Assembly (NCBI GenBank): GCA_963745075.1
Contig: CAVUWV010000017.1
Span: 96,001 to 160,000 of the forward strand
Direction: 5' to 3'
Length of the DNA: 64,000 bases
From: Candidatus Hydrogenedentota bacterium
GTDB taxonomy: Bacteria; Hydrogenedentota; Hydrogenedentia; Hydrogenedentales; SLHB01
Positions within the stretch are counted from its first letter, which is position 1. Each line of letters starts with the position of its first letter. Below, piece by piece: positions 3,290 to 6,651 of this stretch. Under the pieces are notes generated by a model that was given only the letters and a program-made list of their open reading frames with translations, was not told where the DNA came from and searched no databases. A program made the position numbers and the translations under genes.

Positions 3290-4297
3290 TTATTTGGTTT
3301 CGCGGCCCGCGTATTGCCGTTTGTAGTATTCGAGGAACTCACCGGTCTTGATTTTCCGCCACCACCACTCGTTGTCCTGGTACCACTTCACCGTCAACGC
3401 GATGCCCTCGTCCCAGTTCATAACCGGCTTCCAGCCAAGTGCCTTAAGTTTCGAGGAATCGATCGAATACCGACGGTCGTGGCCGGGCCGGTCTGTGATA
3501 GGTTGAATCAACGACTCGTCCTTGCCGACGCACTCCAGTATTTTCCGGGTTAATACGATGTTTTCCCGTTCGTTTTCCCCCGCGATATTATACACCTCGC
3601 CGGGGGCACCGTGCCGCAACGCGTGGTCCACGCCGCGGCAATGGTCTTCGACGAACAACCAGTCGCGCACGTTCTTGCCGTCGCCATAAAGCGGCAAAGG
3701 TTCGCTATCGATGGCGTTCGTGACAAACAAGGGCAGCACCTTTTCCGGGTATTGATACGGGCCGTAGGTATTCGAACCCCGCGTAATCGTCACGGGAACG
3801 CCAAAGGTGTGGAAATAGGAAAGGCCCAGCAGTTCACCGCCCGCCTTGCTCGCCGAGTACGGATTGCGCGGCCCCACCGGGTCGGTTTCCTTGAACGATC
3901 CTTTTTCGATGCTGCCGTAGACTTCATCCGTCGAGACGAGCAGCACGCGCTTCGTGCCTTGCGCCTTGGCGGCTTCGAGGATGTTGTGGACTCCCCGCAC
4001 GTTGGTCGCGATGAAGTCGGACGCTTCAATGATGCTGCGGTCCACGTGACTGTCCGCCGCGAAATTTACGACCGCATCGCACCCTTCCATGGCTTGGGCC
4101 ATGGTTTCGGCGTCCGCGATGTCCGCCTGCACGAACGTGTGCCGCGACGCATCGAGGTCTCTGAGATTGTCGAGATTGCCGGCGTACGTGAGCTTATCCA
4201 CGTTCACCACATGCACCTCGGGATAGGTCTTCAAGGTGTGGCGCACGAAATTAGATCCGATGAATCCCGCGCCTCCGGTGACGACAATTCGTTTCAT
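3290..4297 (-). CDS. rfbB: dTDP-glucose 4,6-dehydratase
   Basis: VTGGAGFIGSNF, DKLTYAGN, SHVDRSI, STDEVYG, PYSASKA, DRPGHDRRY. Confidence 0.95.
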   Translation of the reverse strand: MKRIVVTGGAGFIGSNFVRHTLKTYPEVHVVNVDKLTYAGNLDNLRDLDASRHTFVQADIADAETMAQAMEGCDAVVNFAADSHVDRSIIEASDFIATNVRGVHNILEAAKAQGTKRVLLVSTDEVYGSIEKGSFKETDPVGPRNPYSASKAGGELLGLSYFHTFGVPVTITRGSNTYGPYQYPEKVLPLFVTNAIDSEPLPLYGDGKNVRDWLFVEDHCRGVDHALRHGAPGEVYNIAGENERENIVLTRKILECVGKDESLIQPITDRPGHDRRYSIDSSKLKALGWKPVMNWDEGIALTVKWYQDNEWWWRKIKTGEFLEYYKRQYAGRETK

Positions 4298-5142
4298 TCA
4301 CGAGTCTCCCGTTTCTGCATGTAGCGCTGCAGCGCGTCGGTCCAATGCGGCATAGTAAAACCGCAGGCCGCCACGAGTCGCGCATTCGACAATACGGAGT
4401 AGGCCGGTCGCGGCGCTTTCGAGGGATACTCCGTAGCCGCGCACGGCTCCACCGGTGTCGAGACGCCGGCGGTTTTCAAGATTGCCTGCGCAAATTCAAA
4501 ACGTGAACAAGTCCCCTCGTTCACGGCGTGGTACGTTCCGTACGCCGCGGTACGCGCCAGCGCGCGTGTCGCTTCGGCCAGATCCCGCGTGTAGGTCGGC
4601 GAGCCCACTTCGTCACTCACCACGCGGAGCGACGGCCGCTTCGACGCGGCCGCGAGGATTTTCTCCACAAAATTGTTTCCACCGATTCCGTACAACCACG
4701 CGGTCCGCACGATGAAGTGCCGTTCCCACGATCCCCGCGTCGCCGCTTCACCCGCCGCCTTGCTCTCCGCATAAACGCCGTGCGGCGAAATGGGATCGCC
4801 GGCTTCGTACGGTGTCGTCTTTGTGCCGTCGAACACAAAGTCCGTGCTGAAGTACACCACCGGCACTTCCCGCGCGGCTGCCATCTGCGCCACGTTGCGC
4901 GCGCCGCGTTCGTTCACGGCATACGCCGCGTCACGGTCCGACTCGGCGCGTTCCACATCCGTGTACGCAGCCGCATTGATGATGATTTCCGGTCGCGCGC
5001 GCTCGACTGCCGCGCGCAGCGCCGTTGCATCGGTGATATCGAGTTCAGCGTAGGTCAGACCCGTCGTCGGTCCGGCTGTGGCGAATACGTCGATGAGCAC
5101 GTGACCTAACTGACCATCCGCGCCGACTATCAGTGTTTGCAT
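4294..5142 (-). CDS. rfbD: dTDP-4-dehydrorhamnose reductase
   Basis: GADGQLG, INAAAYTDV, STDFVFDG, YAESK, GSPTY, RPAYSVL; 4-nt overlap with rfbB. Confidence 0.93.
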   Translation of the reverse strand: MQTLIVGADGQLGHVLIDVFATAGPTTGLTYAELDITDATALRAAVERARPEIIINAAAYTDVERAESDRDAAYAVNERGARNVAQMAAAREVPVVYFSTDFVFDGTKTTPYEAGDPISPHGVYAESKAAGEAATRGSWERHFIVRTAWLYGIGGNNFVEKILAAASKRPSLRVVSDEVGSPTYTRDLAEATRALARTAAYGTYHAVNEGTCSRFEFAQAILKTAGVSTPVEPCAATEYPSKAPRPAYSVLSNARLVAACGFTMPHWTDALQRYMQKRETRE

Positions 5143-5246: not shown

Positions 5247-5273
5247 TCAAGTTTTTGAGTGTTTCGCCGATAC
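5247..5273 (+). promoter_or_regulatory. sigma28 (FliA/SigD)-type promoter, unit 1
   Basis: TCAA(GTTT)-N15-GCCGATAC versus consensus TAAA-N15-GCCGATAA. Confidence 0.7.
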
Positions 5274-5279
5274 ATGTAG

Positions 5280-5560
5280 TACAACGCCGAGGCACGGAGG
5301 CCGAGGCAGAATCAGACACGGATGTCGCAAGAGTTGAATGTGGGGTTGGGTAGGCCAATCCTCCCAACCGTCAGCAAAACGGCGTGATGCATGTCCCTGC
5401 ATCCCGTCTTTGCATAGAATGCCCGGTGACCATCCCTACACCGGGTAATCGCAGTGTAGGTGGGTGCTCATCCCTGCACCATACCTGAAAAAGTGACCAT
5501 AGTTTTACCCTCCATGAGTGGCGCCACAATCCCATAGTTGTGGCGTCCTTCCTTTTTTCT
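5280..5560 (+). ncRNA. Candidate sigma28-dependent sRNA 1 (two ACGGA hairpins plus five C-rich-loop hairpins)
   Basis: Bounded by a sigma28 promoter and a terminator; no credible ORF. GGC-ACGGAG-GCC at 5291-5302 and GACA-CGGA-TGTC at 5315-5326, then hairpins enclosing TAGGCCAATCCT, TGTCCC, ACCATCCCTA, TCATCCCT and TCCCATAG. Confidence 0.6.
5520..5560 (+). terminator. Intrinsic terminator of candidate sRNA 1
   Basis: CGCCACAA-TCCCATAG-TTGTGGCG stem-loop followed by TCCTTCCTTTTTTCT. Confidence 0.65.
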
Positions 5561-5600
5561 CTTGCCGCGCCAGTCCGAAATCTTTCATCAAATTTGCCGC

Positions 5601-5627
5601 TAAAGTTCCCCGCCCTTCCGCCGATAA
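5601..5627 (+). promoter_or_regulatory. sigma28 (FliA/SigD)-type promoter, unit 2
   Basis: TAAA-gttccccgcccttcc (15 nt)-GCCGATAA, an exact consensus match. Confidence 0.8.
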
Positions 5628-5633
5628 AAGTAC

Positions 5634-5825
5634 TGCACGGACCGAGACACGGAGGTCGAGGTCACCTGACACGGATGTCACCCATTTTAATAGGTCTGAG
5701 GACGACGCCGGCGAAAGCCGCACGGGGCGACCAATCCCATCGCCCGCTACGTGACGCGTCCGAAAGGTCTAACCCTCTGTAGAGTGCGCTATGGCACTGC
5801 GTGGCATAGCGCATTTCTCCTTTTT
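5634..5825 (+). ncRNA. Candidate sigma28-dependent sRNA 2 (5' module paralogous to sRNA 1)
   Basis: ACGGA at 5637, GAC-ACGGAG-GTC 5646-5657, TGAC-ACGGAT-GTCA 5667-5680; multibranch domain with a CGGC-GAAA-GCCG GNRA hairpin and GGGCGA-CCAATCCCA-TCGCCC; terminator at the 3' end. Confidence 0.6.
5785..5825 (+). terminator. Intrinsic terminator of candidate sRNA 2
   Basis: TGCGCTATG...CATAGCGCA 9-bp stem followed by TTTCTCCTTTTT. Confidence 0.65.
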
Positions 5826-5852: not shown

Positions 5853-5876
5853 TAATCGTAATCGTAATCGTAATTG
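5853..5876. repeat. Hexamer tandem repeat (TAATCG)x3 + TAATTG
   Basis: Directly visible just downstream of the truA stop. Confidence 0.8.
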
Positions 5877-5883
5877 GCCCGCC

Positions 5884-6651
5884 TCAATACTCCACCGCCA
5901 TCAAGGTCAGCCCCCGTGCAGGCGCTGTAAAGCCGTGATACGGTCCTGGCGATCCCAACAACGCGTCGATACGCGACTCCGGCAGGTGGCCGCGTGCCAC
6001 CTCCACCAAGGTCCCCGTGATGTTACGGACCATTTTGTAGAGGAACCCGTTCCCGTGGAATTCCAACCGCCACAGGTTTTCCACGTCCGGGGTTTGAATC
6101 ATGCCGCCTTTCGCCAATCGCAGCGAATACAGGGTGCGGACGGTGGAATGCTTCGGGCTGGCATTGCTTCCCTCGAAACTCGCGAAATCATGTTCACCCT
6201 CGAACTTCGTGCACAGATTACCCAACCGCTCGAGATTCAAATCGCGGGGGGCGTGCCACGCAAAGTCCGCACAAAAAGGATCCGGTTCCCGATTCAGATC
6301 GAGCGCGTACCAGTATCGCTTGGCACGGGCGGATTTACGGGCGTGAAATCCCTCCGGCGCCGGCGTAATCGATTCGAAACGAATCTCCGGACCCAGCATT
6401 TGCGACAGGGACCGCCGCAGCCGCTTCGGATCCACGTGATCCGGCAGGGTGAACGAACACACTTGCCCCAAGGCGTGGACTCCGGCATCGGTGCGGCTCG
6501 CGCCGTGGACGGGCACCGGTTCGCCCACAATCCGCTCGACGGCGGCCAGGATCTCGCCCTGCACCGTCCGTTCCGTGGGCTGAACCTGCCATCCGGCAAA
6601 ATTGGAGCCCACGTAGCGCACAACGGCTTTGTAGTTCCGAGTCTCCGGCAT
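5884..6651 (-). CDS. truA: tRNA pseudouridine(38-40) synthase
   Basis: YVGSNFAGWQVQ, TVQGE, GASRTDAGVHALGQV, GEHDFASF, GFLYKMVRNI, TAPARGLTL. Confidence 0.95.
   Translation of the reverse strand: MPETRNYKAVVRYVGSNFAGWQVQPTERTVQGEILAAVERIVGEPVPVHGASRTDAGVHALGQVCSFTLPDHVDPKRLRRSLSQMLGPEIRFESITPAPEGFHARKSARAKRYWYALDLNREPDPFCADFAWHAPRDLNLERLGNLCTKFEGEHDFASFEGSNASPKHSTVRTLYSLRLAKGGMIQTPDVENLWRLEFHGNGFLYKMVRNITGTLVEVARGHLPESRIDALLGSPGPYHGFTAPARGLTLMAVEY

Follow-up and report, generated by a model that had tools for sequence, protein, structure and literature searches.

A small RNA family of Candidatus Hydrogenedentota with CsrA-type hairpins and tails complementary to flagellin ribosome-binding sites

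The stretch of Candidatus Hydrogenedentota DNA analysed here (64,000 nucleotides in full, hereafter the window) holds two tandem plus-strand units in the gap between two minus-strand genes. Each unit has a sigma28-type promoter directly upstream, hairpins with ACGGA loops and a hairpin plus U-tract at its end, and the question raised by this locus is what such units do. A preliminary description had read them as non-coding RNAs of the flagellar regulon that mainly titrate CsrA. The promoters, the ACGGA hairpins behind each of them and the hairpin plus U-tract ends that it proposed are borne out at the positions listed below; the UCCC loops and the antisense tail were absent from it. The flanking ORFs are presumed from their sequence to be rfbD-like and truA-like genes.

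4294..5142, minus strand: rfbD-like flanking gene (ORF; context), on the strand opposite to the units
5247..5273, plus strand: sigma28 (FliA) promoter of unit 1, TCAA-N15-GCCGATAC; the same extended form precedes the flagellin genes of this genome, where fliA is present
5280..5560, plus strand: sRNA unit 1, about 280 nt, with its start predicted by promoter position; supported by fold z, homologues and a family-model match of 82.7 bits
5286..5326, plus strand: CsrA module of unit 1, two ACGGA-loop hairpins (5286-5307 and 5315-5326), from sequence, alignment and covariation
5343..5485, plus strand: hairpin array of unit 1, with unpaired UCCC in three loops (5394, 5433 and 5471)
5497..5522, plus strand: antisense tail of unit 1, 25/26 complementary to the leader, Shine-Dalgarno sequence (SD) and start codon of fla3, more weakly to fla2
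5522..5560, plus strand: intrinsic terminator of unit 1, hairpin and U-tract; its loop also has UCCC (5530)
5601..5627, plus strand: sigma28 promoter of unit 2, TAAA-N15-GCCGATAA, the exact consensus
5634..5825, plus strand: sRNA unit 2, about 190 nt from a predicted start; one of the seed sequences of model R1
5640..5679, plus strand: CsrA module of unit 2, two ACGGA hairpins (5640-5663 and 5668-5679), with a third ACGGA at 5637
5725..5745, plus strand: hairpin of unit 2 with an unpaired AUCCCA loop (helix 3; two-sided changes in 5/5 pairs)
5766..5786, plus strand: antisense tail of unit 2, matching fla3 imperfectly in this clade but strongly in orthologues
5785..5825, plus strand: intrinsic terminator of unit 2, hairpin and U-tract (helix 4; two-sided changes in 7/9 pairs)
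5884..6651, minus strand: truA-like flanking gene (ORF; context), converging on unit 2

Both promoters were assigned by the FliA/sigma28 consensus. The ACGGA motifs lie at 5294 and 5318 in unit 1 and at 5637, 5649 and 5671 in unit 2. The fold z is -3.73 for unit 1 and only -1.54 for unit 2, and the predicted fold leaves part of the unit 1 tail paired (0.35 unpaired at the anti-SD). The absence of a credible ORF noted earlier holds, and a coding role is rejected: an 80-aa plus-strand ORF (5540-5782) is unconserved, with an in-frame stop in one same-genus homologue, none of the homologue matches shown spans its whole length in one frame, and SD-led ORFs of at least 10 codons occur in only 12/100 units. 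A hammerhead or other ribozyme in unit 2, considered for a CUGA...GAAA stretch that we took to resemble a hammerhead, is also rejected, as the core pairs fail to form, the stretch is unconserved and Rfam gives no match. A 6-base tandem repeat at 5856-5876, between terminator 2 and the truA stop, is the source of many spurious blast matches in relatives. In two same-genus genomes (L010, L011) about 800 extra bases separate the units, with the promoters about 1,150 nt apart as against 354 here.

The two units are paralogues of one sRNA family. Twenty-eight homologues fit a single plan, in which two ACA-N-GGA-N-GU hairpins are followed by a variable linker and a UCCC-loop hairpin, then by a tail rich in pyrimidines and, last, the terminator. 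In both GGA hairpins the A, C, A, G, G, A and G positions show no variation across 28/28 aligned homologues, and the conservation check run on the GGA loops upheld them as first described. Orthologues of unit 2 occur in 5/5 same-genus genomes, and the covariance model matches 54/61 relatives and 101/135 genomes of the phylum. Across 62 model-aligned members, in an alignment itself fitted to the structure, 17/23 pairs have two-sided changes, more than in any of 500 shuffles or of the slid controls. Units are in tandem in 18/50 genomes, and truA-like and rfbD-like sequence each lies beside units in at least 19/50, a lower bound as the flanks are short.

Family-model matches are found in 98/104 genomes with flagellin (scored at E 1e-28 or better; 104/135 genomes) and in 3/31 without it, such that 98 genomes have both, 6 flagellin only, 3 the RNA only and 28 neither; the 135 genomes are related, and this co-occurrence is a pattern, not an independent test. 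Two of the six flagellin-only genomes are the sole sampled genomes outside the order, and a pattern search in five of the six found no unit. Two of the three RNA-only genomes are 80% and 60% complete, and one has a borderline match (E 6e-4). Hfq was found in 0/135 genomes of the phylum and had no match in the present one (89.7% complete), with control genomes positive.

A pattern scan of GTDB returned at least 122 loci. The 80 examined comprised 32 with Hydrogenedentota or equivalent titles, 21 with Nitrospira-type submitter labels, 3 titled 'uncultured bacterium' and 24 others; 55 of the first 56 match the family model, and no full member is among the 24 otherwise-labelled loci (best score at most 30 bits; four inspected by eye have no anti-SD tail). 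Rfam gave nothing to E 10 on the stretch except two chance snoRNA matches, and nothing at gathering score in 12 loci. No description of the family was found in the full-text literature among the matches listed, subscription papers being mostly outside its scope. This is a real RNA family, apparently undescribed, as had been supposed, and a variant of the base-pairing, CsrA-associated sRNAs.

Some loci depart from the layout seen here. Units lie about 0.5-2 kb from flagellin genes at L118 (G037:C32), G109:C178 and G110:C2, unlike in this genome. Shortened members (111-123 nt) with a CsrA module, a terminator and little antisense tail (L153 477-588, L155 473-583, L170 405-527) are candidate sponge-only derivatives. 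The locus titled Firmicutes UBA3943 (L261 260-391, minus strand) has a sigma28 promoter, three ACAAGGA hairpins and a terminator, with neither an ORF nor an anti-SD tail, and a second similar unit seems to follow; it looks like the pure sigma28 CsrA sponge first proposed for the window. Short, apparently non-coding units with CAGGGAUG or ACACGGAUG hairpins occur at L246 362-490 and 971-1099 (titled Desulfuromonadales), L249 247-390 and L250 292-404; L246 and L249 have a terminator-like stem, and all three loci, which have no clear sigma28 -35 element, are possible Rsm-type RNAs outside the phylum.

When used as a DNA query, the region matched the organism's own flagellin cluster on another contig: window positions 5497-5522 are antisense, at 25/26 bases, to G000:C8:8373-8398, a segment that runs from the leader through the SD to the start codon of fla3, the third flagellin. 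Among 24,680 candidate start regions from an over-inclusive ORF set, the unit 1 tail ranks fla3 1st (-52.0 kcal/mol; next-best candidate -40.9), fla2 4th, fla1 3,218th and the orphan flagellin 11,325th, and among the 1,502 GGAGG-containing starts fla3 is 1st and fla2 2nd. The whole-RNA cofold gain of unit 1 follows the same order (fla3 -40.3, fla2 -25.2, fla1 -4.3 kcal/mol), and the UCCC loops of its array are complementary to GGGA in hairpin loops of the fla2 and fla3 leaders. For the unit 2 tail fla3 ranks only 206 of 24,680, the pairing with own flagellins is no better than with foreign ones (0.38), and the duplex is -29.9 kcal/mol here as against -38.6, -40.0 and -49.1 in G001, G002 and G034; a better target was found neither at start codons nor elsewhere in this genome.

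There are four flagellins in this genome, plus a weaker FlgL-like match, and fliA, csrA and fliW are present, the last two adjacent. The strict sigma28 promoter occurs three times in the 6.8-Mb genome, once upstream of the fla2-fla3 flagellin operon; a relaxed pattern has 18 matches, which include sites before fla1, the fla2-fla3 operon and two genes that we take to be flgK-like and fliD-like. Eight variants of the CsrA-hairpin 12-mer give 28 matches genome-wide, 4 of them inside the two units. These counts, with the rarity of the strict promoter, make the features of the units more than a chance assembly. CACGGA motifs are also present in other sigma28 leaders, namely those of a small Cys-rich ORF (G000:C23:91722, plus strand), the flgK-like gene (C23:77577, minus strand) and the fliD-like gene (C27:84498, minus strand), which suggests a wider CsrA regulon among late flagellar genes. 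At G000:C8 9414-10007 (L086, minus strand) a sigma28 promoter is followed by a fla2 leader of about 570 nt with many hairpins and 14 ANGGA motifs, 8 of them AGGGA (0.34 expected over 562 nt). The flaA mRNA of Campylobacter is said to act as the main CsrA sponge, and the fla2 leader could itself be the main one here. The fourth flagellin (L006; G000:C21:146773, minus strand) is highly divergent, on the longest branch of the tree; it lacks a CsrA-type leader and any sigma28 promoter within 330 nt, and the RNAs do not match it. Contigs C10, C11, C12, C26, C31 and C32 carry at least six copies of a dispersed, REP-like palindromic repeat of about 60-70 nt with GGCAGGGATGCC, unrelated to the sRNAs.

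The relation of tails to flagellins was compared over 50 genomes, in which 103 promoter-to-terminator units were called and three mis-cut ones dropped, leaving 100, against 133 flagellin leaders from 50 genomes; both sets are partial and cover the listed clusters only. The tail was defined by position, as the 32 nt that precede the terminator stem and 3 more, and complementarity played no part in the definition. Among the 79 units with at least two own flagellins, 63 exceed the median foreign set in their pairing with these, 35 fall in the top 10% and 11 beat every foreign set; the remaining 16 do no better than the median. When each of 30 genera is represented by a single genome, the best duplexes average -36.0 for own flagellins and -31.8 +/- 0.5 when permuted (z -8.4; 0/2000), a z value that overstates independence because the genera are related, and neither control window has an effect (upstream leader z 0.86; reverse complement z -0.83). 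Set against 400 GGAGG starts of the genome that holds the window, an own flagellin beats all in 39/79 units and is in the top 1% in 54/79, which cover 26/30 genera, so the tails are more than generic anti-SD sequences. In identity-only alignments of 54 pairs, G.U outnumbers A.C by 77 to 52 (p 0.03; 45% in shuffles), an excess that favours RNA-RNA pairing by the plus strand. These comparisons indicate that the tail of the family has changed in step with its flagellin targets, a feature co-varying across genomes that the sponge reading of the preliminary description overlooks.

The flagellins matched by the RNAs are distinguished by their leaders. Where a sigma28 promoter lies within 140 nt (promoter-proximal, n = 24), upstream GGGA is present in 3/24 leaders and a CACUC-type motif before the SD in 2/24, as against 85/109 and 92/109 for the other flagellins (n = 109); these are the two motifs complemented by the loops and tail of the RNAs. 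Mean all-against-all duplexes are -23.1 for proximal flagellins and -27.5 for the others. In a flagellin tree (quick method, 130 rows) the promoter-proximal copies are clustered and do not form one clade (12 changes), and the downstream copies group by genome or genus. The target class is therefore a property of the leader and not a protein clade, and dosage or timing is as plausible a purpose as altered filament composition. The target leaders already have ANGGA hairpins, so directing CsrA to new mRNAs looks unnecessary. The RNAs' own CsrA sites contain AGGGA in only 16/174 cases, which implies that self-pairing is avoided.

By a complementarity threshold set by the authors, the 100 units divide into 69 with both a CsrA module and strong flagellin complementarity, 20 with the antisense part only, 10 with the CsrA module only and 1 with neither. 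The CsrA module is absent from 21/100 units, 20 of which retain strong flagellin complementarity, and is thus not obligatory for the family. As judged from these sequences, the antisense half is the core and the predicted CsrA binding a frequent but detachable addition; a sponge role may apply to some members, the roughly 10/100 units with a CsrA module and weak antisense.

Signs of expression come from contigs of relatives in the 4 RNA runs compared, of 11 listed, in which shares are small, strand and ends are unreadable and absent coverage is uninformative. In three metatranscriptomes short contigs (183, 192 and 294 nt) lie almost wholly on unit 1 or 2. One 184-nt RNA-run contig extends 87 nt beyond terminator 1, and in the fourth run a 1,868-nt contig that covers rfbD may derive from DNA. 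Together these contigs give a weak hint that the units are transcribed.

The reading that we favour, and consider probable, is that the RNAs are CsrA-bound antisense repressors acting in trans on downstream flagellin copies. FliA would transcribe the two stand-alone sRNAs along with the flagellin genes, and each would bind one CsrA dimer through the pair of GGA hairpins at its 5' end. Hairpins this close could occupy both faces of the dimer, an arrangement that suits stabilising or sponging better than bridging and counts against this reading. The UCCC loops would make the initial contact, with GGGA hairpin loops in the downstream flagellin leaders, and the 3' tail, whose complementarity is seen, would then zip over CACUC, SD and start codon and block ribosome entry. 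The tail-leader duplex may also invite RNase III cleavage. Promoter-proximal flagellin, which has neither matching motif, would escape. CsrA would be the partner of the RNA where Hfq is not found, and would stabilise or escort it. By analogy with the FliW-CsrA switch and with PasE (see below), silencing would peak when FliW is occupied by unexported flagellin, leaving CsrA free. Since the targets are themselves sigma28-driven in this genome, the net effect would be an incoherent feed-forward loop that lowers the output of the extra flagellin copies. Against this reading stand the weak match of unit 2, the 16/79 units whose own pairing does not exceed the foreign median, the partly paired tail of unit 1, and the contigs that extend beyond terminator 1 or cover rfbD.

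As the main alternative, the same parts could work as a switch with two independent arms, the 5' hairpins titrating CsrA and so freeing promoter-proximal flagellin, the tail silencing downstream copies without CsrA. This is consistent with the separate assortment of the modules (69, 20, 10 and 1), with CsrA sites in proximal flagellin leaders that have no antisense-matching motifs, and with the capacity of two close hairpins to saturate a CsrA dimer. We nevertheless think it unlikely, because two sites per RNA make a poor sponge beside the 14 ANGGA of the fla2 leader or the 22 GGA given for CsrB in the available text of PMC7652899, and FliW is already present in the genome as an antagonist. 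The scarcity of sites also weighs on a pure CsrA sponge under sigma28 control, the main function first proposed. The invariant GGA hairpins, the presence of csrA and the roughly 10/100 units with weak antisense speak for it, yet each RNA of the window has only two (three) sites, 21/100 units have no CsrA module, and the 25/26 match, the co-variation and the UCCC loops are left unexplained; as an account of the family it is highly improbable.

Net activation, by pairing that strips CsrA off the leader or that processes or stabilises the operon mRNA, is slightly less improbable than the pure sponge, and still very doubtful. The paired regions are exactly the CsrA-type sites of the mRNA (the loop GGGA and an A-N-GGA inside the SD), and some sigma28 sRNAs, UhpU and MotR, raise flagellin levels according to the available part of PMC10578931; against this, the duplex covers the SD and AUG themselves, which is incompatible with initiation. 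Least probable of all is a relic left by inverted copying of a flagellin leader, or an RNA of the opposite strand. An inverted duplication could give near-perfect complementarity, and several AGGGAUG loops on the minus strand are textbook CsrA sites. The promoters and U-tracts are on the plus strand, however, where the fold z is -3.73 as against -0.73 on the minus strand, 17/23 stem pairs co-vary, and the family persists in 101 genomes and hardly occurs in those without flagellin; a minus-strand CsrB-like RNA is rejected on the fold z and the G.U excess, which favours the plus strand.

For the favoured reading, of CsrA-bound antisense repressors, the nearest mechanism is that of PasE and the nearest biology that of FlaX and of CJnc10/CJnc170, as far as the available parts of the sources go. 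PasE of enteropathogenic E. coli combines two CsrA-binding GGA sites with a single-stranded seed for base-pairing to mRNA; the RNA, stabilised by CsrA, represses translation (available part of bioRxiv 10.64898/2026.08.12.744399). A layout of this kind, two CsrA sites and a separate pairing seed, is found in 69/100 units, including both in the window; the seed-target complementarity is found in unit 1 and in the family and is weak for unit 2. By the same partial text, PasE is 56 nt long with a 5' seed and many targets, is conserved in E. coli and Shigella, and brings CsrA to otherwise unbound mRNAs. In the Hydrogenedentota RNAs, by contrast, a 20-26-nt 3' tail would mask the target's own CsrA site and SD, and UCCC loops, a sigma28 promoter and predicted flagellin targets are added. 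The 3' tail and the distribution in Hydrogenedentota set the family apart from PasE by description.

FlaX of Vibrio cholerae base-pairs with a single flagellin paralogue, at several sites of its leader, prevents initiation and alters filament composition; it is cut from the flaA 3' UTR and bound by ProQ, and the available text does not mention a CsrA module (PMC11879080), whereas the Hydrogenedentota units are intergenic with their own sigma28 promoters. The Campylobacter RNAs CjNC1 and CjNC4, which are CJnc10 and CJnc170 (FlmR), are paralogous, stand-alone, Hfq-independent sigma28 sRNAs in negative feedback on flagellar genes, but are about 44 nt long with predicted sigma54 class II targets, and again no CsrA module is mentioned in the portions available (PMC4626219, PMC11187230); the predicted targets here are flagellins that are themselves sigma28-driven in this genome. 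FliX, MotR, UhpU and FlgO of E. coli are sigma28-dependent sRNAs that alter flagellin levels, FliX lowering fliC, and differ in being UTR-derived, Hfq-bound and paired inside the coding sequence (PMC10578931, in part). The window units have the FliA promoters and the genome has the fliA expected of such sigma28 flagellar sRNAs, the dependence itself being predicted. In B. subtilis, a FliW-type organism, CsrA promotes the pairing of SR1 with ahrC mRNA; the context is arginine metabolism, with sigma28 and flagellin unmentioned in the available part (PMC6546359). CsrB, CsrC and RsmXYZ share GGA motifs in hairpin loops, but have many sites, are driven by BarA/UvrY in Gammaproteobacteria and act by sequestration and not by pairing (available text of PMC7652899). 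The window units have GGA in loops too, with two and three ACGGA as against the 22 GGA of CsrB, and no Rfam Csr/Rsm match.

FliW-type bacteria are described, in the parts of PMC7652899 and PMC6546359 available, as controlling CsrA by protein rather than by sRNAs, and RNA-guided CsrA is represented in the literature searched by one 2026 E. coli preprint, available in part (bioRxiv 10.64898/2026.08.12.744399). A broader and more tentative proposal, which we regard as possible, is that in this phylum, where Hfq was not found, CsrA has become the standing partner of modular guide RNAs, which would hold it on two hairpins and whose co-evolving tails would address chosen flagellin copies. The FliW-CsrA checkpoint would thereby become paralogue-specific, with one to seven guides per lineage, including guide-only and CsrA-only derivatives. 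The family is natural and phylum-wide, with about 100 called members, a predicted target for most of them and visible sRNA-target co-variation, and its natural tail and leader pairs are ready-made compensatory controls. It makes testable whether CsrA can stand in for Hfq, whether one RNA can hold CsrA and mask the CsrA sites of its target, and how the relative output of several near-identical flagellins is set within a cell.
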